Notes under the pieces: model-generated
Seen by the model: only the letters and a program-made list of their open reading frames with translations
Told to the model about the DNA's origin: nothing
The model's database searches: none
Shown: positions 586 through 47,996 of the stretch, in pieces
Position numbering within the stretch: the first letter of the stretch is position 1
Layout: each line of letters starts with the position of its first letter
Position numbers and translations under genes: made by a program
IMG/VR virus record: IMGVR_UViG_3300025909_000005
Length of the DNA: 64,000 bases
Strand: one strand, 5' to 3'
Source of the DNA: a virus
Lineage: Duplodnaviria; Caudoviricetes

Positions 586-2222
586 TGCTTGATCCTGATG
601 GTCATCGCAACCGCGTTGTTGTCCGGCGAGCTGTCATTCTCAGGTGAGTGCAGGACGCCAGAAAGCGTCATGGATCCGTTCACCGATGGAGCCGTGAGAT
701 TGAATCTAGCTGTGACGTATTGGCCAGTGGCGAGCGAGGAGAGCACTGGAAGCGTAACAGTCGTGACGCCATTGGTACGAACAGAGGTGGAGCCCGTTGG
801 AAGGCCAGACACCGTGACTGCTTGACCGCCAACATCGCTGATCTTGATGACTCGAGTTGCCTGCGTCGCGCTGAGCAGGCCTTCATTGGAGGCCGTGACG
901 AGCACCTGAACTGTCTCGCCCTGCTGCGCGTTGAGCGGAGCAGAGAGCTGGAGCTTGAGGTTCGTGTTCTTGCCCTGTGTTGGAGGAGCCGCAACCACGA
1001 TGACGTTGGTCTTGAGCACCTCATCCTGGCCGTACACGCTCTTGACGCGGAACTTGACCGAGTAGTTGCCTGCGGCCGTGAAGGTGTAGGACGGATTCTG
1101 AGTTGTCGAGTCGACGATGCCATCGTTCTGGAAGTCCCACTCGAACTCGGTTGGGTTGTGCAACGCGGTGCTCGTGAACTGGACCGTCAGCGGCAGGGTA
1201 CCGGTGACTGGAGACGCCGTGAAGTTTGCAACAGGTGGGAGACCCGTCACTGGTGGCACGACGTACGTGATGTTCTTTTCAAGGATCGTGGCTGCCTGGA
1301 TCTCGATCCAGATGGAGTCAACGTCATAGACGTAGCCAGCGATTTGGTTCACACCGAGAGTTGGTGGAGTGGTGGTGACCTGACCGGTTGGACCACAGAA
1401 GATCGGGCGGCCGATCGCTTCGGCTGGCCAAGACCACTGCTCATTGCGAACAACGCCTGAGGTCACGACTGAGCCGACCTCAGAGGAGTAGAGGTCCTCA
1501 ACGACGATGCCGATGATTCGGCTGCGCCAGTTGTCGGAGCGAGCAAGCGCCAGCTTCCGGCCTGGCAGAACTTGAACGAAGCTGAAGGCAGGAATTGGCT
1601 CGTTTGCCATGCCTGCCAGCACCTCAGTCTCGAAGTTGACCTTTGTCGTGTCACCTGTGACAACAGACAGGCCAGACGTAGACGTGACGAACGTGCCATC
1701 AGAGGCGCGCAGCGGCTTGTTGTACTGGTCAAGAACGAGAGCGCCAGCGTCGTACGAACCGTTGTCACCGACCTGGGATCCCTTGGCCCATGGCTGAATC
1801 GTCGCACCGTTCAGGTACGTTGCAGCAAAGACGCGGAGCTTATCGAGCCACTTGTTACCGTTCCAGACCTTCATCTGGCTGATCGACGTGTCGTACCAGT
1901 GCTGGTCAACCGCTGGATTGTTCGGCGCCGTTGCTGCAACTATCAGCGGGAAGTTCGTGGCACCACGTGTCAGCGAGGCATCAAGAAGGTTGATGTCCCA
2001 GTAGAGGTACTTCGTCTGATTGGTGGTGAACGGACCCCAGGCATTCGGGACAGACCGCACCTCCTCAACCACGTACGTGGCAGAACGGTGCGCGAAGATG
2101 ATAACCGTCGGGTCTGGTGAAACGACCAGGTTGATGAAGTTACCGCTCTTCGCCAGGAATGTCGCGGTTGCATAGACATCGGTCTGATATCTTGCAATGC
2201 CTTGGCGGAAGGTCAGACGCAT
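582..2222 (-). CDS. Virion structural protein with PKD domain and C-terminal DUF11/CARDB-like Ig domain (546 aa)
   Basis: Clear PKD signature PPVANFTASPVTGTLPLTVQFT...EFEWDFQNDG...STTQNPSYTFTAAGNYSVKFRV. Tail-type motif NPAVDQHWYDT...KVWNGNKW. C-terminal LKLQLSAP...VLVTASNEG...NDSSPDNN. Confidence 0.8.
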   Translation of the reverse strand: MRLTFRQGIARYQTDVYATATFLAKSGNFINLVVSPDPTVIIFAHRSATYVVEEVRSVPNAWGPFTTNQTKYLYWDINLLDASLTRGATNFPLIVAATAPNNPAVDQHWYDTSISQMKVWNGNKWLDKLRVFAATYLNGATIQPWAKGSQVGDNGSYDAGALVLDQYNKPLRASDGTFVTSTSGLSVVTGDTTKVNFETEVLAGMANEPIPAFSFVQVLPGRKLALARSDNWRSRIIGIVVEDLYSSEVGSVVTSGVVRNEQWSWPAEAIGRPIFCGPTGQVTTTPPTLGVNQIAGYVYDVDSIWIEIQAATILEKNITYVVPPVTGLPPVANFTASPVTGTLPLTVQFTSTALHNPTEFEWDFQNDGIVDSTTQNPSYTFTAAGNYSVKFRVKSVYGQDEVLKTNVIVVAAPPTQGKNTNLKLQLSAPLNAQQGETVQVLVTASNEGLLSATQATRVIKISDVGGQAVTVSGLPTGSTSVRTNGVTTVTLPVLSSLATGQYVTARFNLTAPSVNGSMTLSGVLHSPENDSSPDNNAVAMTIRIKQ

Positions 2223-2256
2223 TCAGGATCTCTTGTTGTCGCCTTGCGGCGAGCTG

Positions 2257-2883
2257 TTACGAAACCGAGATCGTAAGCGTGTAGACGATGGTCAGTTCGC
2301 GGTTGCCAGTATGTTCGATTGGCGAGAAGATCAGATGTGACAGCATCAGCTCACCTGCACCAGAGAGCAGGGAGGTTGGCGTAGATGGGTTTGCAGTCTC
2401 GTGTGTGAACAGACCGAGCTCATCGAAGAAGTATGGCGAGTTGAAGTTGCCAGACGTCGTAGAACCGTCGTTCGTCGTGTCAGCTGTATTCTGGAAAGCC
2501 TCGGATGCCGAGATCACGCAGGTGATGATGACGCGCGTGTTTGTCGAAGCTGGAATGTTGGTGAACGTAACCGAGTTGCCAACGCCGACACCAGCATCAG
2601 ACTCATCCACAACTTCCACGTAGGTGGCGTTGTAGAGGTTTGCGGTGTCGCCAGTCGTGATGGCTGGGCGGAACACGATCTGCTGGTTCGAGTCGATGTA
2701 CGTACCTTGATTGCCAAGCTTCAGCTTGTAGATCTGGTAGTTGCTCGTGTTCGACAGACCGCGAGCGATGGCGGTTGCCATGTTCTTCGGGTGAATGTCG
2801 TTGTGCTTGTCGACCAGCACGTTGCCAGCATCGTCCTTGATGAGTACGTGGCCAGAGACGCGGGTGCTGAGAAGTTCTTGCAT
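2257..2883 (-). CDS. Virion structural (baseplate/tail-associated) protein (208 aa)
   Basis: Beta-rich ORF with GHVLIKD...KHNDI and FDELGLF...LSHLIFSPIEHTGNRELTIVYTLTI. It has its own late promoter and lies in the baseplate module. Confidence 0.6.
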   Translation of the reverse strand: MQELLSTRVSGHVLIKDDAGNVLVDKHNDIHPKNMATAIARGLSNTSNYQIYKLKLGNQGTYIDSNQQIVFRPAITTGDTANLYNATYVEVVDESDAGVGVGNSVTFTNIPASTNTRVIITCVISASEAFQNTADTTNDGSTTSGNFNSPYFFDELGLFTHETANPSTPTSLLSGAGELMLSHLIFSPIEHTGNRELTIVYTLTISVS

Positions 2884-2910
2884 GTAGTCCTCTAGGGGGT
2901 TATTCGGCTC

Positions 2911-2916
2911 TATTTA
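2911..2916 (-). promoter_or_regulatory. Late promoter core TAAATA
   Basis: Intergenic, upstream of the 2883 gene; T4 late consensus is TATAAATA. Confidence 0.75.
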
Positions 2917-2920
2917 TCGC

Positions 2921-5900
2921 TCAGGCCACAATGATTTGAAGCGTGGTTGGGGAAGCGAAAGAGAACTGGTAGGTGTAAGAGCCTGCAAGTTTCTGAGCGC
3001 CCACCTGCAGAGGAACGGTTTGGACAGGCAGCAGCACAGAGAAAGTAGGTGTGGACTGTGGCGCCACTGTGAACACGACCTGGAAGATGCGCGCCGGCAG
3101 TGTAACGTCAATTGTGGTTGGTGCAGACTGAATGAACGAGATGGAGGTAGACTCCGTCTGCGAGTCAAGGCCGCCAGTGTCGTAGCCAGCTGTGCCAAAC
3201 GTGTTACCGTTGTCTACAGACAGAAGCACCATCGAATCCGTGATCGAGGTGGCAACTGGTGTCGATGGACGATCGACGATGTCAAACGCGGAACCCTGCT
3301 CTGGGAAGCCGAAGTTCTGTGCCGTCAAGACGGTGTCTGCGTCCAGCGCAGCCAAGAAGTCTGGCAGGGTCGTCTGTGACAGGCTGCCGTTCACCAGGAA
3401 GTCACCAAGCAGGTCACGCAGGTCCGCGAGACGAGCTGAATCAGTTGGTGAAGGCGATGGCAGGGCCATGAGCTCCTGCGCCTCCAAGAAGTAGGCAGTC
3501 AGCGGCTGACCAAGGTCGTAGAAGCCGTTTGTCGTTTCGTTGTCGTACGGCAGGTTGTCGTAGCCGGCCAGGAAACCTGTGAATGGCCCGTCAACGATCG
3601 TGGTGTTGAAGGAGTCAACGAGGGTCTGGTTGATCGACCACTCGGTCGTGTCGACAACCGAGATGTTGGCATCATCCTCGAACATGTGGTCTTCAGCGAG
3701 TGGGCCACCATCGATAAGAAAGCGCAGGCTTTCGGCGATGCGAACTCGTGTGAGTTCGTTCCAGCTGTTGTCGATCGTGACAAGGTTGACCTGTGCGTTG
3801 AGCGGCAGGTACTTCGTGAAGAAGGCTTCGTCCCACTCAAACTCGATTGGCCAGTTGACGTTCGTGGCATCTGTCTGCTGGAGCTTGCCGATTGTCTCGC
3901 CACTTGCTGCCGTCGTGAAGACGTGTAGGGTGGTAGGGTCAGAGTACTCAGCGATGGATGTAACGCTGTCGTAGCGACCATCTGTCATTGGCAGCCAACC
4001 GTTCAGGATGGCGGTCTCTGGACTCGTGTTTGAAAGTGGAATGTCGCTGTTCGTGCTCGTCGAGATGAAGCGCGGGTCGATGTTGATCAGGTCAAGTGGT
4101 GACGTGTCAGCGGTGCTGGTCGTAATCGAGATGAGTGCGCGACCATCCTCAGACTTCTCCACAACTACCAGGTCACCCGCATCTGGCAGGCGTGGTGGCA
4201 GCGCTGGATTCAGAATGACCATGTCGGCTGAGTTCCACAGCTGGTAGCCGTGGTCAATGACCCTGAGGTGGACGACGTCCTCAGTCAGACCAGTCGACGT
4301 GGCGCTCAGGTACTTGTCGTTGAAGGTGCCGGTCGCTGGCATGAAGCCTGTCACGTTGATGTCAGAGCGCTGAACGAGGTAGCCACTCGAGGTCTTGGTG
4401 AACGTGTAGATCAGGGAGGGGCAGTCCTCACGGATCGTGTACGTCAGAGGCAGGTCTGTGCGAAGTGAGTTCGTCGTGTCAAAGAGCTGGCCAACTGGAG
4501 CGTTCAGCTTGAAGCCGATCTTGTCGTTCCAGTAGTACTCGCCAATGGTTGCTGGCTTCGTCCAGCCCGTGACAGAGCCGTGCACGAGGTACGATGGCTT
4601 CTTGTCAAACGTGTTGAACGTGAAGGTGTCGCCTGCAAAGATGCCGCCGTTTGGTACGATCGTGAAGTGAACGTAGTCGTTCTTGTACGAGAGACCCTCA
4701 GCGGCAATCAAGCCAGGAGTTGGAATCGTGTTGCCTGAGCTGTAGAAGCCCTTGTCGTTTGAGACGGTGTACGACGTGGTCGTGTCGAACTTGACAGTCC
4801 ACTTGGCTTCAGGCGCCTTGAAGAAGTCGTCGCTGTGCATGATCAGGCGCGGCAGACGGGCCGCAACGAGACCAACAGGGCGCTCAACAAGGGTGGGCAG
4901 TGGGTTGACAACCTGGAACGAGAAGACATCGCCACCTTCAACGCGAGGGTAGGTCGTGTCAGCAGCAGTTACGGCGATGAATGGCTTTGAACCTGCTGGA
5001 AGGTCAAAGCTGATGCCGTACGTGGAAGACGAGAACGACTCACCAACGTTGACGTTGCCAATGTGGTGCGAGGTCAGGAAGTTGTCGTCAGAGTAGTCGA
5101 CACTGAACGTCGTGGAGAGGTAGAGCTCCAACTCAGGAGCACCATAACGAGCTGCTGCATTCGAGGCAGGATCTGGTGACACGCCAGACGTAGCGTCGTC
5201 AAGGTCAACGAAGTCGCTAGAAGTGCCGTCCTTCTTGGTTGTGATGAGAGACGTGCTTGGCAGCGCACGGACGCGGAAGTAACGTCCGTCTTGGACTGCC
5301 TGCGTCAGTGTGAGGTTCAGCTGGGTGAGGTCATAGTCCGTGAAGCGGCCGTCATACGCGAAGTTGATCTTCGTCGTGCCGTCGGCATACGTGAGGTGAT
5401 CGTTGTCGTAGGCATCCAGGTCGTAGCCGTAGCCGAGGTCCAGGTTTTGCACTTCAGCTGGGATGTTCGCGATGCTGAAGTAGAACTTGTCACCTGCCTG
5501 GAATGGACCGACGAGGGTGAAGCCGAGCTTACCGTCGTTGAATGGAACGCCGACCTCTGCCACGCTGTAGTAGGTCGGCCCAACAACTGAGAAGTGCGTG
5601 GAATCCGTTGCAGTCATGACGAAGTCACCGATCAGGGTCTGATCGAGAAGGTCAATGTTGCCGACGGTGCCAGAGGAATCTTGAATGTGGCCGTAGTGCG
5701 AGGAGCCGTAGAACGGACGATCATGGGCAATTGGGTTGACCTTGATGATGTTCCACTGTTCGCGCAGCGCAGAGGTGCCGATCGTGATCTTGTTGTACGG
5801 CGTGAGCGCCAGCTTCTGGCCCACTGGAGGAGTGGCGAGCGACGTCAGCGTAAATGAAACGCGCGGCGAGGTGTACGTGCCTGGCGTAACGAAGGCCAAG

Positions 5901-37622: not shown

Positions 37623-38857
37623 TTTACAAGGTCTCCTCGACCAAGCAGCTGCACTTCTCTGATCCGCTCCATGTGGGGCGGTTCTACCCACATGCGCAGC
37701 GTGTGCACCAAGGGAAGATGCAGGAACGCCAAGACCTGATCCTCTACCTCGCGAGCATTCACGAGGCGGCGATCAAGTCTGGCATGCCTCGTGGTTTCTG
37801 TCGGATTCCGATGCGGCTCACGAGTCTGAAGGAATGGGTGCACGACTACAAGGGTGCGTTCAATCACTTCTTCACGATCGTCGAGTCAGGCTACCACATC
37901 GGCGATGATTGGCAGTACAGCGTCATCATCCCGAACGAGCTGCCACGGGATCCTGACTTCGAGCACACCGAGCGGAAACTCGTGTACGTTCCACCTCCAG
38001 TCCCCGCTCAGGGTGTCGTGTCGAAGGTGTTCGTGCAGGTGCAGAAGAAGGAGCCCATCCTCAAGAAGCTGGCCACGAACAACCGCCTGGACCTCTACGC
38101 TCCAGTCGAGTGGCTCCTGTCCCAGCCAACCAACGAGTTCAACTTCTACTTCATCCCATCTGGGAAGCTGCAGATGCGGGATACCTCGATCTGGCCAATC
38201 GCGGCCATCGAGACCTGGCCCTCGTGGCTGCGTGAGGATCTCTTTGGCCCTGGCATTGACATCGAGGCCGCGTACACCCAGTTCCTGATCGAGGGAGTTC
38301 GCAAGGCATACGAGAAGGAACCGGACATGGTTCGGATTCTCTACCCAGACCTGCTGCGTTCACTCGAGGACAAGACGCAGTGGCGCCGAGAGATCTGTGA
38401 AGATGTGCTCGGCATGGAGTGGAATGACCACAGCGTGGGCGTGGTGAAGAAGATCTGCATGAGCCTGGCCAACGGTTCAAAGATCTCACCTGGGATCCTG
38501 CTCTCGGAGATGGGTCACTCAATGACTCGCAACATTATCCTCGAAGAGTCGGCAGACGTGACTGCAAGCAAACTGATCCACATCGGTCAACGGCTCCTCA
38601 CCATTTCACGACAGTACTCCGCAGCAAAGAAGGTGGTGTGCAGGTGGGAGCTCGGCTTGGCACCAACCAGGGCCAACCAGAAGAAGGTCTTCGCTGGCTA
38701 CTTCGAGTGGGAACGTGAGGCGCGCTACAAGATCTGGGAAAGTGTTGGGAGACACGGGATCATGGTGCACGATGGGATCGACGGCATTCCTGAAGAGGAG
38801 CTCAGCCGAATCCCTGAGATCATTTCGAGCTTGAACTTGAAGCTGACCCGCTCTTAG
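37619..38857 (+). CDS. Compact family-A/T7-RNAP-superfamily polymerase-like protein (412 aa)
   Basis: SGKLQ...WLREDLF...GIDIEAAYTQFL (motif A), VVKKICMSLANG (motif B) and IMVHDGID (motif C), in the canonical order. Confidence 0.55.
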   Translation: MIYKVSSTKQLHFSDPLHVGRFYPHAQRVHQGKMQERQDLILYLASIHEAAIKSGMPRGFCRIPMRLTSLKEWVHDYKGAFNHFFTIVESGYHIGDDWQYSVIIPNELPRDPDFEHTERKLVYVPPPVPAQGVVSKVFVQVQKKEPILKKLATNNRLDLYAPVEWLLSQPTNEFNFYFIPSGKLQMRDTSIWPIAAIETWPSWLREDLFGPGIDIEAAYTQFLIEGVRKAYEKEPDMVRILYPDLLRSLEDKTQWRREICEDVLGMEWNDHSVGVVKKICMSLANGSKISPGILLSEMGHSMTRNIILEESADVTASKLIHIGQRLLTISRQYSAAKKVVCRWELGLAPTRANQKKVFAGYFEWEREARYKIWESVGRHGIMVHDGIDGIPEEELSRIPEIISSLNLKLTRS

Positions 38858-39215
38858 ACGGGAAGATCATCACGAAGCGGTACCGGTCGGAGTGCGTGAA
38901 CTTCTGACCGGTTACCTTCACGTCTGAGTTCTGCTTCTTGATGAGATCGAGGTACTGCTTCATGCGCACGTCGGCGATCGGCGGGCTCTTTGGCGTGATT
39001 AGAGTTACCACAGCCTCGTAGTGAAACTTGTCAGGGCTACGAGGATCCTCAACCTTGACCCTCACATAGGACTGGAATGACAAACCCTTAATCTGCCTTG
39101 CGAGCATGCGAAGGGTGTACTCGGCCTTGTGCGGGTCTGACAGTGACGTGGTGACGTCATCGTAGTGGCCCTTAAGCTTGTCAAGGGCTTCGAGGAATTG
39201 GCGGAAGGTTTGCAT
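38820..39215 (-). CDS. Putative internal head protein, leader MQTFRQFLE-ALDKLKGHYD (131 aa)
   Basis: Leader motif. TAAATA 6 nt upstream of the ATG. 3' end overlaps the convergent gene. Confidence 0.65.
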   Translation of the reverse strand: MQTFRQFLEALDKLKGHYDDVTTSLSDPHKAEYTLRMLARQIKGLSFQSYVRVKVEDPRSPDKFHYEAVVTLITPKSPPIADVRMKQYLDLIKKQNSDVKVTGQKFTHSDRYRFVMIFPSKSGSASSSSSK

Positions 39216-39221
39216 TGGTGC

Positions 39222-39227
39222 TATTTA
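39222..39227 (-). promoter_or_regulatory. Late promoter core TAAATA
   Basis: 6 nt before ATG 39215. Confidence 0.75.
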
Positions 39228-39252
39228 GCCACTAATGCTATTACCCGTGCGC

Positions 39253-39576
39253 TCACCACTGCTGCGGGTCTTCAATCTCAACCCAGTGCTTCGCGTCTTT
39301 TTTGTAGATGAAGTGAGTTGAACTAGTTCGATCAACCTCAGTTCCGTCGGGTTTGTATGTCTCGTCGTTTCCGAAGCCCTTACGCTGCCCGATCCAGCCC
39401 TCGAGATGATAGAGGGAGTTCCATTGGTCGTACCACGCATGGATCGTGAATTGAGAAGGCTCGTACTTGCCGACCGCCAAGCACCATTCAGCCATGCGTT
39501 TGCGGAACTTCGCAGCCATCCCGGCTGGAAGCTTGGTCGGTGGCTCTACAGTCTTGGCAAGGTCTTTGAGTTTCAT
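39253..39576 (-). CDS. Small late protein starting MKLKDLAK (107 aa)
   Basis: TAAATA 5 nt upstream of the ATG. Starts with the LKDLAK motif. Confidence 0.6.
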   Translation of the reverse strand: MKLKDLAKTVEPPTKLPAGMAAKFRKRMAEWCLAVGKYEPSQFTIHAWYDQWNSLYHLEGWIGQRKGFGNDETYKPDGTEVDRTSSTHFIYKKDAKHWVEIEDPQQW

Positions 39577-39581
39577 GCCGG

Positions 39582-39587
39582 TATTTA
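39582..39587 (-). promoter_or_regulatory. Late promoter core TAAATA
   Basis: 5 nt before ATG 39576. Confidence 0.75.
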
Positions 39588-39590
39588 GGA

Positions 39591-39815
39591 TCAGTAGACC
39601 GGGAACGTTGCCTTTGACGCCGCCTCAAGGCGTTTGTTGACGAAGGCAACAGCCAGGTCTCTCTCCAGCGGCGTCATCTCAAGAACGGTCTCATACGGCC
39701 AGGCACCGCGAGAGAAGTAGGAGACCTCCAGCGCGGTCTGGAGCAGGTTGCGTGTGTCGATACCCAGAGTCGTGATCATTTCGGCGATCCTGCTCTCATC
39801 GCCGGACATGATCAT
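39591..39815 (-). CDS. Small baseplate-hub/tail assembly chaperone module (74 aa), possibly expressed as a -1 frameshift extension of the upstream gene
   Basis: LEVSYFSRGAWPYETVLEMTPLERDLAVAFVNKRLE. The frame is open across the upstream slippery site. Confidence 0.7.
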   Translation of the reverse strand: MIMSGDESRIAEMITTLGIDTRNLLQTALEVSYFSRGAWPYETVLEMTPLERDLAVAFVNKRLEAASKATFPVY

Positions 39816-39827
39816 TCTGTGAAAAAA
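39773..39827 (-). other. Candidate -1 programmed ribosomal frameshift signal (slippery T TTT TTC plus stimulatory hairpin)
   Basis: In-frame heptamer at 39827-39821 and 6-nt spacer. TGATCAT/ATGATCA and CGGCGAT/ATCGCCG stems lie between 39814 and 39773. Confidence 0.7.
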
Positions 39828-40636
39828 GAGATCGGGTTGACCGGGAGGTCGACCTTCATGTCCTTCTTGCAGTCCTTGCAACAGAGCGTGACAGTCTGTG
39901 ATGGACCCCAGGTGTTTGTCTTCTCGATGGTCTCTGTGATCCGGTTCTGCCAAGGAGTCGTGATGCCGGAAACCCACTCACGAATCTGCTTCTTGTCTTC
40001 GATCCCGTCCACTGACTTGATCAGTGAGGTCAGGGTTACGACGACGTTCTCCTTGATGTCTTCAGTCTCAAACTTCTTCTTGCCTGCGTTCAGGTGGAAG
40101 AGCTTGATCATGTGAGCGAACTTCACAGGTTCGACCTTTACAACCTGTCCGTTGGGAAGCGTGCAGGTGTACTCCTCTTCGATCGTGGTTGGGTCCAGCA
40201 TCGGCATGTTCATGACGAGCTGCTCGATGTTCACGGAGTAGCCGTGCTCGGTGTGCTTGACCTTCTCAGAGCCATCTGGGAGGGTGAGCGTCTTCTTGGA
40301 CTCCTCGCAGTCGTGCGTGACTTGAATGTCGAAGTTCGGTCCATACGTCACCAACCTGAGGAAGTACATGATCGCGTCGATGTCGCGGCCGTAGAGCTCC
40401 GTTGCCTTCTTGATCTGCGGGATGCACTCAGCGAAGACACGCTCGATCGCCTTGCCGTTGAACAGGGTGTCTGGGTTCTTCAGGTCAATCTCAGCGAGAG
40501 CTGAGAGGGCGTGAACGTGGATCTCACCCTCCGACGCGTCGATCTCACCGTTCTTGTACAGAGCACCACGGGATGGGAGCTGAAACGTCTTGCCAGGAAG
40601 CTTGATCTTGGCAAGAAGCGGGTTTGTTGTGTCCAT
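39812..40636 (-). CDS. gp26: Baseplate hub assembly protein, T4 gp26/gp51 family (274 aa)
   Basis: Start ATG 40636 with SD GGAG. FQLPSRG...DIDAIMYFLRLVTYG...HDC...TLCCKDC...LPVNPISFF. Confidence 0.78.
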   Translation of the reverse strand: MDTTNPLLAKIKLPGKTFQLPSRGALYKNGEIDASEGEIHVHALSALAEIDLKNPDTLFNGKAIERVFAECIPQIKKATELYGRDIDAIMYFLRLVTYGPNFDIQVTHDCEESKKTLTLPDGSEKVKHTEHGYSVNIEQLVMNMPMLDPTTIEEEYTCTLPNGQVVKVEPVKFAHMIKLFHLNAGKKKFETEDIKENVVVTLTSLIKSVDGIEDKKQIREWVSGITTPWQNRITETIEKTNTWGPSQTVTLCCKDCKKDMKVDLPVNPISFFTE

Positions 40637-40656
40637 CTGGGGTTTCTCCAATGTCA

Positions 40657-40662
40657 TAAATA
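40657..40662 (+). promoter_or_regulatory. Late promoter core TAAATA for the tape measure gene
   Basis: Intergenic. Confidence 0.7.
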
Positions 40663-40680
40663 TGTCTCTCAGGATCATGA

Positions 40681-40686
40681 TATTTA
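40681..40686 (-). promoter_or_regulatory. Late promoter core TAAATA for the gp26-like gene
   Basis: Intergenic, facing the 40657 promoter. Confidence 0.7.
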
Positions 40687-40723
40687 CGCACTGGGCCAAA
40701 CGCCCGCCGGGACACCCATCAGG

Positions 40724-43522
40724 ATGGCAGTAGAAGACGACATTCTCAAGGTTCTACAACGAATCGAGAAGGCCTTTGGTAACTCAAGCGCTACCATTGG
40801 TGGGGGTGGCGGCGTCAATCGTCGCGTGCTTCCAACCGGCCAAAGTGTAGGCGCTGATTCAGCGAAGGCGCAGCAGCTTTCCAAGAAGGATCAAGCCGAC
40901 CAGAGCAAGCACTTCAAGGCCACAACCAAGTCGTTGACCGACCTTGGAGACGTAGCTGACGCCCTCGGCAAGCAGTTCAACGGCCTCGGTAAGACGGTTT
41001 TCAACACTCGCGCGAACTTCGTGCAGATGAACCGCTCGATGCGCGCCTACGTCAAGGGCGTCGCGGGTGGAGCAAGTGGTGGCGGTGGTGAGACCATTAG
41101 CCAAGCCGATGTCAAGAAGGCAGCAGCTGGTCCAGCGCGGACAGGTGGTCGCACTGGCGGGGGCGGTGGTGGCGGTGGTGTACTTGACCTGCTTCACGCT
41201 GACGCGGGTGGCAGCGGTGTAAAGCGCATTCTCGGCTCGGTCATTCAGCAGACGTTCAAGCCTGCTGGTCAAATGGTTAAGACTGCCGAAGGCGACACTG
41301 TTGAACAGATCCTGTCTTTCGGTAAGAAGTACGAAGTCACAGCTGCATCCATCGTAGGTGTTGGCACCGCACTCGTCAAGGCAGTAAAGCCGCTCGCTGA
41401 GGACTTCCTCTTCCTTCAGAGCCAGTCGTTCAACGCTGGCTCGTCAATGATTGACCTCTACAAGAACGCTGCTGCAGCGGGTATGTCACTGAAGGACTAC
41501 ACCAAGCTCCTTCAAGAGAACAACTCGCTGCTGACCCGTTCAGCTTCGATTGACGACTTCAACAAGAAGATTCAGGGAACAGTTCAAAGCCTGAACAGCT
41601 TCGGCATCTTTGGTGAGCAGGCCACGGCTCTCGCGGCAACGTTCGCCAACTCTGCCACGATGGTCGGTGTTGCTCAAGGCAACCTCGATCAAGTCAGCCG
41701 TCCTCTTGAGAAGATGTTTGAGACCCTGGCGACGAACGTCGGTCTCACAGCTGATCAATTCAGGGAGATGACGAAGACGCTCGCTGACAACGAGGACATT
41801 CAAGACTCCCTCATCGGCCTTGCAAAGAAGGACCGTGCGGCGCGCTTCGTTGAGTACGTTCAGACGCAGACTCTCGGTCTTGCAATGGGCGGCACCGTCA
41901 AGCAGTCGAATGCACTTGCTCAGGCCCTGCTTGACCAGCGCAAGGCCTCCGTTCAAGACACGTTCCAGCAGTCAGGCACCCTCAGCCAAGCTGGCGCCAT
42001 CTTCGGTATGGACCCCGGCCAAATCGAAGCCGCTCGCCGCATCTCATTGAAGTCAGAGGCAACTCAGACTGAACAAGAAAAGACACTGCTCGCCAACGTT
42101 ACTGGTGAGCTCGATCAGCGCCTCTCAGCTGCTGAGAACAGCAACGACCTGAACACTCGTAACATCGCCCAGTCGCTGCGGGCCGGTCTTGGCAACCTTG
42201 GTAAGATTGGTCAGGCACGAGCTCGCATCGGCCTTGCTGCTGACTCTGGCGACAACCAAGGCGTGAACAAGGACTTCACACGTGGAGTTGACAAGTTCGG
42301 TGAGTTCGTAGGTCAGCTGACGACATGGGGCAAGGGCCTCGCGGCCAATCCAATCGCTGAGGCCATCATTGGTGGCGTCACCTCCGGTCTGACGACGCTC
42401 ATTGGCACGAAGGTTGGCGCCAACATCTTTGGTCGCATCTTCGGCAAGGGCACGGCCGCAGCTACTGGCGATGCAGCCAATGTCGGTAAGTTCTTCACTG
42501 AATCCGAGAAGGCAGCTCAGGCAGCGACCACTGCTGGAGCAGAAGCCACTGCGGCTGCCGAAGGTGCGGCTGCAACGGGTGAAGCTGCCGTCGCAGTTGA
42601 CGCGGCTGCTGTTACGGCTTCGACTGGAATTGGAACTGCTCTTGGCACGTTTGGCAAGATCCTGGCAAAGGGACCAATCATTGCTGCCTTCGTGGACGGC
42701 ATTGAAGAGGCGTTCACCGGCGCCCTTGCAAATGCACTCGACCCAAATGGCGGCCTTTTCGGGCGCATTGAAGGCGTCGCGATCGCAGCCTTCTCAGCCA
42801 TTCCGCAGATGCTCATTGATGCCTTGTCCTGGGCGATCGGCCCAGATGCGCTCAAGCCAATCCAGCACTACTTTGACATGTTCAAGACCGGCCTCGCCTT
42901 CGGCATCAACACGCTCATCTTCGGTTTGCTTCACGCCATCTCGTTCGTCACCGACCTCTTGCCAAAGGATTCTGGTCTTCGCAAGATGGTTGAGAATGGT
43001 CAAGAGACGTTTGCAGCCGCGATGTCCGCGAATGAAGAGACGATGGCGAAGCTGCAGGACGGCAACGACAAAACTCTCAAGGAAGTTGGTGATGCCAACA
43101 AGGCAGCAGCAAAGGTTGCAACTACCACTGCGAGCGCCGCCACGGCAAACATCCAGCAGGCGGCAGGCGTTCTCACGAGTACAAACAATCTCGCCGGCTC
43201 TGTGCTTACAACGGCTCAAGGTATCGCTGCTTCACCAGCTGCACAAACTCGCCCAAGTGTCAATTCGGGAGCTGTAAATACGCCAGCAAATGGAACCAAC
43301 CCAGATGGAACTCCAGCGATTGCGACCGCTCCTGGTACGACAACCACAGGAGCGCCTGCTGCTCCTGACATGCCAACTCAACTGGCTCAGGTGATCCAGC
43401 TTCTTACGAAGATGTTGGACAGCGAACAAGCACAGGCAAGTGGTCTTACGTCTCTGGCTTCTGCTCTTGGTCGCCCAACGTTCACGGACAACACCGCTGT
43501 TGCCGCGAACCTCATCATGTAA
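40724..43522 (+). CDS. Tape measure protein (932 aa)
   Basis: Start reassigned to ATG 40724 (SD AGGA). Long Ala/Gly-rich helical ORF with amphipathic repeats, next to the hub chaperones and before the portal. Confidence 0.75.
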   Translation: MAVEDDILKVLQRIEKAFGNSSATIGGGGGVNRRVLPTGQSVGADSAKAQQLSKKDQADQSKHFKATTKSLTDLGDVADALGKQFNGLGKTVFNTRANFVQMNRSMRAYVKGVAGGASGGGGETISQADVKKAAAGPARTGGRTGGGGGGGGVLDLLHADAGGSGVKRILGSVIQQTFKPAGQMVKTAEGDTVEQILSFGKKYEVTAASIVGVGTALVKAVKPLAEDFLFLQSQSFNAGSSMIDLYKNAAAAGMSLKDYTKLLQENNSLLTRSASIDDFNKKIQGTVQSLNSFGIFGEQATALAATFANSATMVGVAQGNLDQVSRPLEKMFETLATNVGLTADQFREMTKTLADNEDIQDSLIGLAKKDRAARFVEYVQTQTLGLAMGGTVKQSNALAQALLDQRKASVQDTFQQSGTLSQAGAIFGMDPGQIEAARRISLKSEATQTEQEKTLLANVTGELDQRLSAAENSNDLNTRNIAQSLRAGLGNLGKIGQARARIGLAADSGDNQGVNKDFTRGVDKFGEFVGQLTTWGKGLAANPIAEAIIGGVTSGLTTLIGTKVGANIFGRIFGKGTAAATGDAANVGKFFTESEKAAQAATTAGAEATAAAEGAAATGEAAVAVDAAAVTASTGIGTALGTFGKILAKGPIIAAFVDGIEEAFTGALANALDPNGGLFGRIEGVAIAAFSAIPQMLIDALSWAIGPDALKPIQHYFDMFKTGLAFGINTLIFGLLHAISFVTDLLPKDSGLRKMVENGQETFAAAMSANEETMAKLQDGNDKTLKEVGDANKAAAKVATTTASAATANIQQAAGVLTSTNNLAGSVLTTAQGIAASPAAQTRPSVNSGAVNTPANGTNPDGTPAIATAPGTTTTGAPAAPDMPTQLAQVIQLLTKMLDSEQAQASGLTSLASALGRPTFTDNTAVAANLIM
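43275..43280 (+). promoter_or_regulatory. Embedded late promoter TAAATA in the 3' end of the tape measure gene
   Basis: About 250 nt upstream of the portal; encoded as GTA AAT. Confidence 0.5.
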
Positions 43523-43531
43523 GGAACGCCC

Positions 43532-45268
43532 TTGGCACAGCTCCAAAACTACTGGCGCATTATTACGCCAGCATCACGTAAGCAGTTGTATACGACACTG
43601 TCGGTAGACGCCTACGATCCGCGCACCACTGACAACTCGTCGATGACGTCCGTGCAGTGGTACTCACAGGTTCTTCGTGGTCTAGGTACTCGTCAAGCGA
43701 ACTACAAGCAGTACGATGCCATGGACATGGACATCGACATCAACCGCTCTCTCGACATCATCGCTGAGGAAATGTCTGGCAAGGACGAGAAGACCGGTTT
43801 GCCGTTCGAGATCGAGTACCAGAAGGAAGACAACCAAGACATCAGCGACACGACTGCTGTCACCCTTCGCCAGGCTGTCCGCCAGTGGTCGTCCACGCAG
43901 GACCTGAACAAGCGCATCTTCTCGATCGCCCGTCAGATGGTCAAGTACGGTGACTGCTTCTTCCGCAAGGTCTCTGACACTCAGAAGTGGGCGGCCGTTG
44001 ATCCATCTCTGGTGCACGGCATTGAGATCGACATGCTCGGCAACAAGATCGCCTATCACTTGAAGAAGCCAACGAACAACACGTTCTACGGTTCCAAGAA
44101 CGAGCAGATGGAAGTGGTGCCAGCCTCGGCCATGATTCACTTCACGCTGTCTGACGACATGGGCGACTCAGCACCGTTCGGTAACTCCGTGCTCCGCCCA
44201 ATTCACCGCGTCTACCGCCAGCTCTCCATGCTGGAAGACGCCGTCATCATCTACCGCATCGTTCGCGCACCTGAGCGTCGCCTGTTCTACATCGACGTCG
44301 GCAACATGCCACCTCAGCGCGTGAAGCAGTACCTCGAACAGATCAAGAACGAGATGCGACAGAAGCGGATCCCGGGTGTGAACGGTGGCAAGGACACCGT
44401 CGACGGTCAGCTTGACCCAATGTCCATTCAGGAAGACATGTTCTTCCCTGTCACCGCAGGTGGCCGTGGCTCACGCGTTGAGACCCTGCCTGGCGGCACT
44501 GAGGACTTCGGTACGAACCTGATCAAGCTGTTCCAAGACAAGATCTTCCGCGGTCTCCGCATCCCAACCTCGTACATGACTGGTACGGATGGTCAGGGTG
44601 CGCAGTACAACGACGGCAAGGTCGGTATTGCCTACATCGAGGAACTGCGCTTCGCTCAGTTCATTCGTCGTATGCAGGACCGCCTCGATGAGATCTTCGA
44701 CGAAGAGTTCAAGATCTACCTGAAGGTTCTCGGTCTGAAGGTCGATGATGAGATCTTCCGCATCAAGCTCCCAGATCCAGCCAATTTCGCCCTGTACCGT
44801 CAGGCCGCCCTTGACGCTGACCTGATTGGTTCGTTCAACAACATTGCCGCTGAGAAGACCTTGAGCCGCCGCTTCATCCTGAAGCGCTACCTCGGCCTGA
44901 CCGACGACGAGATCCAGATGAACGAAGTGATGCTCAAGGAAGAGCGTGGCATCCTCGAGAACGCCAACATCCCATCGATCCAGCAGATGTACGACCCAGC
45001 CGTCTACGACAACCGTGAAGCTCTCACGGTCGAGGCTGCGTCTCCTGATGCTCCTCAAGGTTCTGGCCCATCGGCCGGTGGAGATGAGGGCGGTGGTGGC
45101 GGTGGAGGAGGCGGGGAGACCGGCTTCTTCGATGAGACCGGTGGCGGTGGAGGTGAAGAAGGTGGTGGAGGTGGAGGTGGAGGTGAAGAAGCCGCTCCTG
45201 AAACTGGAGGCGCCCCAACTCCTGCACCTGCTCCGGCCCCAGCAACAGCACCTGGCCCATCGGCATGA
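43532..45268 (+). CDS. gp20: Portal protein, T4 gp20-like, with Gly/Glu/Pro-rich C-terminal tail (578 aa, TTG start)
   Basis: LSMLEDAVIIYRIVRAPERRLFYIDVGNMPPQRVKQYLEQIKN, EDMFFP...GRGSRVETLPGG and ELRFAQFIRRMQ. Confidence 0.95.
   Translation: MAQLQNYWRIITPASRKQLYTTLSVDAYDPRTTDNSSMTSVQWYSQVLRGLGTRQANYKQYDAMDMDIDINRSLDIIAEEMSGKDEKTGLPFEIEYQKEDNQDISDTTAVTLRQAVRQWSSTQDLNKRIFSIARQMVKYGDCFFRKVSDTQKWAAVDPSLVHGIEIDMLGNKIAYHLKKPTNNTFYGSKNEQMEVVPASAMIHFTLSDDMGDSAPFGNSVLRPIHRVYRQLSMLEDAVIIYRIVRAPERRLFYIDVGNMPPQRVKQYLEQIKNEMRQKRIPGVNGGKDTVDGQLDPMSIQEDMFFPVTAGGRGSRVETLPGGTEDFGTNLIKLFQDKIFRGLRIPTSYMTGTDGQGAQYNDGKVGIAYIEELRFAQFIRRMQDRLDEIFDEEFKIYLKVLGLKVDDEIFRIKLPDPANFALYRQAALDADLIGSFNNIAAEKTLSRRFILKRYLGLTDDEIQMNEVMLKEERGILENANIPSIQQMYDPAVYDNREALTVEAASPDAPQGSGPSAGGDEGGGGGGGGGETGFFDETGGGGGEEGGGGGGGGEEAAPETGGAPTPAPAPAPATAPGPSA
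45063..45264 (+). repeat. Low-complexity GGT/GGA/GGC and Pro-Ala repeats encoding the portal C-terminal tail
   Basis: GGGGGGGG runs, EE pairs and APAPAPAP. Confidence 0.8.
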
Positions 45269-47942: not shown

Positions 47943-47956
47943 CTCCCCCGCTATAG

Positions 47957-47996
47957 AAAATAGGCGAAAACGCACCGTTTTTACGCCTATTTTTTT
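47957..47996 (+). terminator. Long terminator-like hairpin with U-tract before the scaffold gene
   Basis: AAAATAGGCG-AAAACG / CGTTTT-TA-CGCCTATTTT arms with a 3-nt loop, followed by Ts. Confidence 0.65.

Follow-up and report, generated by a model that had tools for sequence, protein, structure and literature searches.

The window analyzed here is a 64,000-nucleotide (nt) stretch of phage DNA from a rhizosphere metagenome (IMG/VR virus record IMGVR_UViG_3300025909_000005). On its minus strand it carries a gene of the PF12322 family of baseplate-hub assembly chaperones, related to gp26 and gp51 of phage T4, and the 3′ end of this gene probably contains a programmed −1 ribosomal frameshift site, a reading to which we assign a probability of roughly 0.78. 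Most ribosomes would read TCT TTT TTC ACA GAA TGA and release a short form of 274 amino acids (aa), the equivalent of gp26. On some ribosomes, a hairpin 6 nt downstream would cause a pause while UUU and UUC are occupied by Phe-tRNAs; these ribosomes would slip back one base to UUU UUU, thereby entering the −1 frame (CAC AGA AUG) and adding 76 residues, predicted to form a helical hairpin, to give a 348-aa long form, the equivalent of gp51. In this manner the phage would make, at a fixed ratio, the short and long products for which T4 has a pair of paralogous genes; both forms may act in hub and tail-initiation assembly, as lambda G/GT and T4 26/51 suggest by analogy. That the long form arises by a −1 event at the T-run is very likely on the sequence data, and the event itself is probably ribosomal: the X_XXY_YYZ register, the freedom of the Z position, the 6-nt distance to the hairpin, and the structure 3′ of the site all fit this mechanism.

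In the window, the gp26-like gene ends CCG ATC TCT TTT TTC ACA GAA TGA, within which T_TTT_TTC lies in the X_XXY_YYZ register (coordinates of all features in Table 1). Heptamers of the form TTTTTTY are so rare in this DNA, with two copies on both strands of the 64 kb versus 8.2 ± 3.7 in shuffled sequences (the window is 56% G+C), that the presence of one at this position is more than chance. Across ten long open reading frames (ORFs) of the window, TTT accounts for 18% of the Phe codons (35/195) and TCT for 15% of the Ser codons. The −1 frame is free of stop codons from position 39977 to 39591 and reads ...FFHRMIMSGDE... through the site. A trans-frame fusion would comprise 272 + 76 = 348 aa, the 76 residues after Phe272 constituting the C-terminal tail, and its predicted tryptic junction peptide is VDLPVNPISFFHR; the tail was modeled as a helical hairpin with a predicted local distance difference test score (pLDDT) of 88. 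Beyond the spacer stands a two-tier hairpin with stems TGATCAT/ATGATCA (outer) and CGGCGAT/ATCGCCG (inner), which is the minimum-free-energy (MFE) fold (−22.1 kcal/mol, z −2.1; 6 of 200 shuffles folded equally well). The two candidate ATG codons of the −1 ORF are located at the foot of the outer stem (39815) and inside that stem (39809). No upstream Shine-Dalgarno-like frameshift stimulator was evident in the window. A sequence-only reading of this DNA had described the in-register heptamer, the 6-nt spacer and hairpin with two 7-bp stems, a 74-aa ORF open across the site in the −1 frame with ATGs in or at the foot of the stem, a bias against TTT as a Phe codon, and products of 274 and 348 aa; the positions proved exact when the phase was checked against the stop codon, the hairpin coincided with the computed fold, and the product sizes held as predictions.

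The slip site is conserved well beyond the window. We compared 55 loci with protein identities of 25 to 72%, comprising the window, eight jumbo phages from GenBank (RsoM2USA, Xoo-sp13, XacN1, RAS14, XaC1, Serratia BF, MIJ3, and 121Q), one other IMG/VR locus and 45 metagenome loci. T_TTT_TTY was in register, with its first T at codon position 3, in 55/55, and T_TTT_TTC followed by a −1 ORF was also present in the cyanophage S-WAM1 (Kyanoviridae) and the Agrobacterium phage OLIVR5 (Pootjesviridae), for a total of 57/57 loci. In all 57 no stop codon interrupts the −1 frame from the heptamer onward (over 72 to 84 codons among the 55); the frame encodes a conserved domain of ~75 aa, and in many loci it opens merely 3 to 21 nt upstream of the heptamer. 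The codon preceding Phe-Phe ends in T at each of the 55 loci and encodes Ser, Asn, Ala, Val, His, or Thr, the Ser codons being drawn from two unrelated codon families (TCT, n = 31; AGT, n = 15); the first Phe codon is likewise TTT in 55/55. As background, the loci's own ORFs use TTT for 40% of Phe codons and T at 27% of third positions. A natural control is available in T4 gp26, whose C terminus is ...KEFFELL*: its Phe-Phe is encoded by the nonslippery TTC TTT, and it lacks a −1 ORF, gene 25 coming directly after. The retention of T_TTT_TTY in 57/57 loci supports the proposal of the sequence-only reading that this gp26-family gene carries a recoding switch in the style of lambda G/GT. Longer T-runs occur in some relatives, with seven T in XacN1, Xoo-sp13, and RAS14, eight in the locus L053, and nine in RsoM2USA, where the run includes the slip register. 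In RsoM2USA, the closest cultured relative, the 9-T run is followed after 13 to 14 nt by a perfect 11-bp hairpin (L001:3785-3833).

Structure downstream of the site is also a shared property. At 51 distinct loci, the 70 nt 3′ of the heptamer had a mean z of −2.3 and a mean MFE of −19.9 kcal/mol, compared with −0.2 and −13.1 kcal/mol for control windows that the same genes contain 150 to 450 nt further upstream (Mann-Whitney p ~2e-15, a value that is indicative only, as the sequences are related and not independent). The stems themselves vary by clade, being an 11-bp perfect stem in RsoM2USA, CUGGUG/CACCAG in another subclade, and long in XacN1. The 6-nt spacing to the UGAUCAU stem is common to all 20 sequences of the window clade, in which 95.9% of the hairpin cells are paired (19 distinct sequences). 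The inner pair 27-43 was seen as CG (13), AU (3), UA, GU, and UG, and the covariation score of the clade was reached by 0 of 500 shuffles.

Both frames are protein coding. Contigs from three other rhizosphere metagenomes, ~3% different from the window, show no indel in the T-run and zero substitutions between 39721 and 39880, a segment that includes the hairpin. In the tail ORF, 10 of the 11 variable sites fall at third codon positions of the tail frame, and the eleventh (39662) acts jointly with 39660 to turn AGA into CGN, with Arg retained. All four variable sites of the gp26 part are at third positions of the gp26 frame. Both ORFs are under purifying selection, each in its own frame. Two of the variant contigs continue with unrelated sequence directly past the tail stop, and body and tail therefore travel as one module. 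A mosaic breakpoint thus lies at position 39591, precisely where the body-plus-tail module ends.

The 274-aa product matches Pfam PF12322 (T4_baseplate) over residues 52 to 272 with 34 bits (gathering cut-off, 24.5) and phrog_150, baseplate hub, at 3.7e-12. Its AlphaFold model (pLDDT 88) is of a body with a C-terminal CxxC zinc-ribbon-like motif, and fold searches of BFVD returned baseplate hub assembly proteins at E values down to 1e-17; the matches in AFDB clusters and BFVD belong to the same family (baseplate hub, uncharacterized), with no named tail chaperone found in either. Neither the body nor the −1 tail was matched in an NCBIfam scan, and a DNA-level search of a phage collection with the locus gave no match. 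The protein is 48% identical to its counterpart in the Ralstonia jumbo phage RsoM2USA and 25 to 31% identical to those of XacN1, Xoo-sp13, Stenotrophomonas RAS14/CM1, XaC1, Serratia BF and Erwinia relatives, the PA5oct-like MIJ3, and Rak2/121Q-like phages. A T4-related jumbo myophage is hence a fair description of the source, in agreement with the T4-like jumbo phage proposed from the sequence. The exact product of the 74-aa ORF is also encoded on a 376,619-bp contig.

The relationship to the two T4 proteins depends on the tail. In T4, hub assembly requires both gp26 and gp51; neither is known from baseplate structures, and we know of no defined role for either. The PF12322 profile is matched over its full length by gp26 (208 aa) as well as by gp51 (249 aa); as judged by sequence, the two are paralogues, gp51 having ~48 extra C-terminal residues. 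When the tail was aligned by hhalign with a profile built from 33 members of the gp51 family, the result gave modest support for a match to this extension (72% probability, E 3.4e-5, 36 columns), with tail residues 40 to 75 aligned to gp51 positions 221 to 256 at the end of the family profile. Against T4 gp51 or gp26 as single sequences the tail gave no significant alignment, and against the single S-WAM1 tail it gave a weak one. The −1 tail of S-WAM1 matched T4 gp51 residues 200 to 244 by BLASTP (9e-6), beginning one residue past the slip position. In four long forms encoded in a single frame (P0270, P0197, P0228, and P0272; 325 to 340 aa), the protein continues beyond ...DQFF/... into the tail; these tails match the tail profile at E 1e-7 to 1e-10, and the long forms align with the gp51 family at 91% probability, collinear to the C terminus. 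The locus L057 has a tandem PF12322 pair (1959-3790) in which a short gene (276 aa) and a long gene (334 aa) overlap at ATGA; the short gene still ends T_TTT_TTA, with the −1 frame stopping two codons later. L056 (225-1247) has a single in-frame long form with CAA TTT TTT AAC and without the slippery register. Because PF12322 is common to both T4 proteins and the tail aligns with the gp51 extension, the short product would be gp26-like and the whole 348-aa fusion gp51-like. The sequence-only reading, which had a gp26-type gene fused to a gp51-type gene, is consistent with this as regards the fusion product, but not as regards the 74-aa ORF, which matches only the ~48-aa extension and is, on this sequence evidence, a gp51-type extension and not a gp51-type gene. 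In precomputed annotation, gp51 homologues carry PF28602 as a second Pfam family, and no Pfam family is entered for homologues of the 74-aa ORF.

Several observations weigh against a programmed ribosomal frameshift. An ATG overlaps the stop codon (ATGA) in the window and most of its clade (~38/46 window-type loci), and the 74-aa ORF could therefore also, or instead, start by translational coupling. The loci are phylogenetically related, and counts of the 55/55 type overstate the number of independent events. Double changes are confined to just two inner-stem pairs; the outer stem is invariant, hence carries no covariation signal, and also codes conserved residues (MI..., EMI), so that the stem covariation, which the sequence-only reading had proposed to check, is seen as compensatory changes at two inner-stem pairs and not in the outer stem. 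Finally, slippage of RNA polymerase would yield an identical product, and protein-level evidence cannot discriminate between the two mechanisms.

If the ATGA overlap is taken at face value, the locus would consist of two ordinary genes, with the 74-aa ORF started at ATG 39815 or 39809 by termination-reinitiation coupling, no fusion being made, and the T-run and hairpin conserved for the sake of the protein sequence or of control of downstream initiation. Gene annotation would agree, in that a separate small ORF is annotated in 121Q, BF, XaC1, XacN1, Xoo-sp13, RAS14, and OLIVR5. The start, however, is not conserved: the position of the window's ATG is GTA in RsoM2USA, CTG in L047, L048, and L051, ATA in L049, and GCC or ACA in the Xanthomonas and Stenotrophomonas phages. 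The −1 ORF of MIJ3 is without any ATG, GTG, or TTG codon throughout, and in the 84-codon −1 ORF of RsoM2USA the first possible start does not come before codon 49; neither of these two ORFs is annotated. In XacN1 and Xoo-sp13, the likeness to the window tail begins 16 codons 5′ of the annotated ATG, within the gp26-like ORF. A search of 1.84 billion proteins with the tail profile returned 311 proteins, mostly short ORFs, whose called starts are dispersed over tail positions 1, 5, 17, 21, 28, and 33, as expected in the absence of a true start codon. In the GenBank records examined, the tail ORF is absent or called as a free ORF of 46 to 74 aa, typically a "hypothetical protein"; the 46-aa downstream ORF of OLIVR5 is annotated "baseplate hub assembly catalyst." (Three of the profile matches, P0225, P0254, and P0263, with 1949 to 2781 aa and several matching stretches each, are most likely helical-repeat false positives; one is TPR-rich, one has PKD repeats, and one has an IalB match alone.) Independent initiation does not account for the relatives that lack a start codon. 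Also against two separate genes are the invariant wobble T and TTT, whereas T4 encodes its Phe-Phe as TTC TTT, and the in-frame long forms joined at exactly the slip residue. Together with the lack of a Shine-Dalgarno-like motif before either ATG of the window, these data make the two-gene interpretation unlikely, although coupled initiation could coexist with frameshifting in the window clade.

A homopolymer is also the signal expected for transcriptional slippage, in which RNA polymerase would add one U on the T-run and normal translation would give the same 348 aa, and the runs of 7 to 9 T in some relatives point in the same direction. Efficient transcriptional slippage in bacteria usually needs about 8 to 9 T, and the run of the window has just 6. 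In addition, the run is always NNT TTT TTY, with C allowed as its last base, and never NNV TTT TTT, an anchoring that fits the X_XXY_YYZ rule and not the maximizing of run length. Slippage by the polymerase would leave unexplained both this register and the conserved structure 3′ of the site at the spacing of ribosomal frameshifting. We therefore regard it as improbable for the window, while it may contribute where runs reach 8 to 9 T and is more plausible in RsoM2USA. As homopolymers are error-prone and in-frame long forms exist in other phages, a sequencing or assembly error could in principle have split a single in-frame 348-aa gene. This can be given next to no weight: the same frame offset is found in 57/57 loci from isolates and metagenomes sequenced on different platforms, and the best 120 of 341 homologues of the gp26-like product are all 256 to 285 aa long. 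An assembly error as the cause of the offset is excluded by the same 6-T run, free of indels, in the three other metagenomes.

The gp26-like gene is flanked by a portal gene, a divergent 1003-aa ORF, and SbcCD-like nuclease genes (Table 1), and the same neighborhood is found in 121Q, BF, and XaC1. The start of the 1003-aa ORF is probably further downstream, because the listed GTG overlaps the gp26-like gene by ~125 nt. The label "virion structural protein" is given to the ORFs found at the equivalent position in 121Q, BF, and XaC1. A promoter and terminator scan of 38500-41200 found nothing. On the plus strand, an intergenic hairpin resembling a terminator ends in a T7 tail, and this tail is the other TTTTTTY run of the window.

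Table 1. Frameshift locus and neighboring features in the 64,000-nt window
Feature	Position	Strand	Remarks
gp26-like baseplate-hub assembly chaperone gene, zero-frame short product (274 aa)	39812..40636	minus	ATG 40636, stop TGA 39814-39812; from translation
Slippery heptamer T_TTT_TTC (U_UUU_UUC), X_XXY_YYZ register	39821..39827	minus	codons Ser270-Phe271-Phe272; phase checked against stop codon
Spacer ACAGAA (6 nt), heptamer to hairpin	39815..39820	minus	
Two-tier hairpin, putative stimulator	39773..39814	minus	outer stem 39814-39808/39779-39773, inner stem 39804-39798/39788-39782, loop 39797-39789 (9 nt)
−1 frame extension, FF then HRMIMSGDE...FPVY	39591..39827	minus	stop TGA 39593-39591; gene callers list 74-aa ORF from ATG 39815
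Co-oriented downstream ORF (107 aa)	39253..39576	minus	no family match
Co-oriented downstream ORF (131 aa)	38820..39215	minus	no family match
Divergent 1003-aa ORF	40511..43522	plus	adjoins portal gene; no PHROG or Pfam match
Portal gene	43532..45268	plus	
Terminator-like hairpin, TAGGCG...CGCCTA + TTTTTTT	47953..47996	plus	between ORFs ending 47691 and starting 48102

Targeted literature searches found no published report of a slip in a gp26/gp51-family gene. The word "frameshift" is absent from the genome papers for RsoM2USA, PA5oct, MIJ3, XacN1, Atu_ph07, and CBB and from a structural paper on phAPEC6; the accessible text of a 2016 review of recoding (PMC5009743) does not mention gp26, gp51, or the baseplate, and U_UUU_UUC was not found in the text of Sharma et al. 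2014 (PMC4066793). If confirmed, the site would add a deeply conserved U_UUU_UUY signal to the small set of frameshift signals of bacterial viruses, its natural stem variants being suited to mechanistic work and RsoM2USA being a good experimental system, and the annotation of the tail ORF in GenBank records would need correcting. We tentatively suggest, at somewhat less than even odds, that the gp26/gp51 family is the tail assembly chaperone of T4-type contractile tails and that a single frameshifted gene is ancestral in the T4 superfamily (jumbo phages, cyanophages, and Pootjesviridae), the Straboviridae having duplicated it into 26 and 51. If so, the Xu-Hendrix-Duda rule on chaperone frameshifts would reach the only large group of long-tailed phages regarded as an exception to it, and gp26 and gp51 would gain a concrete role in T4, the reference model for contractile tails. 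A pair that most relatives would derive from one recoded gene, as its short and its long product, gives a simple rationale for the existence of both forms and offers a testable parallel with lambda G/GT.

The architecture of the site has well-known counterparts. The −1 sites of Escherichia coli dnaX (tau/gamma) and of insertion sequence (IS) elements consist of a heptamer plus a 3′ stem-loop, and the window shares with them the X_XXY_YYZ heptamer, a spacer of ~6 nt, and a stable 3′ hairpin. The shift in dnaX truncates the protein, whereas here it would extend it, and the window differs from both in having no evident upstream Shine-Dalgarno-like stimulator.

The closest functional parallel is lambda G/GT. 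A −1 frameshift is said, following Xu, Hendrix and Duda in 2004, to be conserved in the tail assembly chaperone genes of long-tailed phages. Lambda gpG/gpGT and this conserved shift are summarized in Figure 4 of the recoding review (PMC5009743). As in lambda, the −1 shift is placed near the end of a gene for a tail-assembly helper, with just a few codons left to the stop; the products, here predicted, are a short form in abundance and a less abundant long form that have their N-terminal body in common and would be made at a fixed ratio; and even very divergent phages retain the slip site. The two systems differ in the size of the body (272 aa here versus ~140), in the heptamer (U_UUU_UUY versus G_GGA_AAG), in the protein family, which is here PF12322, and in the position of the gene, which is not directly upstream of a recognizable tape-measure gene and is divergent from the 1003-aa ORF. 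The body has no match to a Pfam tail assembly chaperone family, PF12322 being the sole match at E values up to 0.1; a sequence-profile search of the PDB gave no chaperone and only chance-level rows, and Foldseek with the body model gave no PDB match at E ≤ 0.001. An exhaustive structural alignment against 48,161 chains ranked YqbN (3klu; Z 5.8, root mean square deviation [rmsd] 3.8, 86 residues aligned) first and the HK97 tail assembly chaperone (2ob9; Z 5.5, rmsd 3.6, 97/104 aligned) second, at Z values (5.5 to 5.8) that lie below the noise guide of the tool. We take YqbN to be an XkdN-like tail chaperone, and consider these weak matches to a modeled fold as a lead and not as a finding. What links the site to lambda G/GT is the logic and not the protein family: of the bridge between two chaperone systems that the sequence-only reading had envisaged, the shared logic stands, and a common Pfam family and an adjoining tape-measure gene do not.

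With T4, in turn, the link is one of family. T4 differs in having two diverged paralogous genes on opposite strands, with no recoding and with gp26 Phe-Phe encoded as TTC TTT, and in the internal in-frame start of its gene 26, annotated 26′; the window has a single PF12322 gene in its 64 kb, with no second copy of that gene or of the tail. The body nevertheless belongs to the same PF12322 family in both, the C-terminal ...CxxC...FF landmark is shared, and the gp51 extension begins where gp26 stops, which is the position of the slip site in the other phages.

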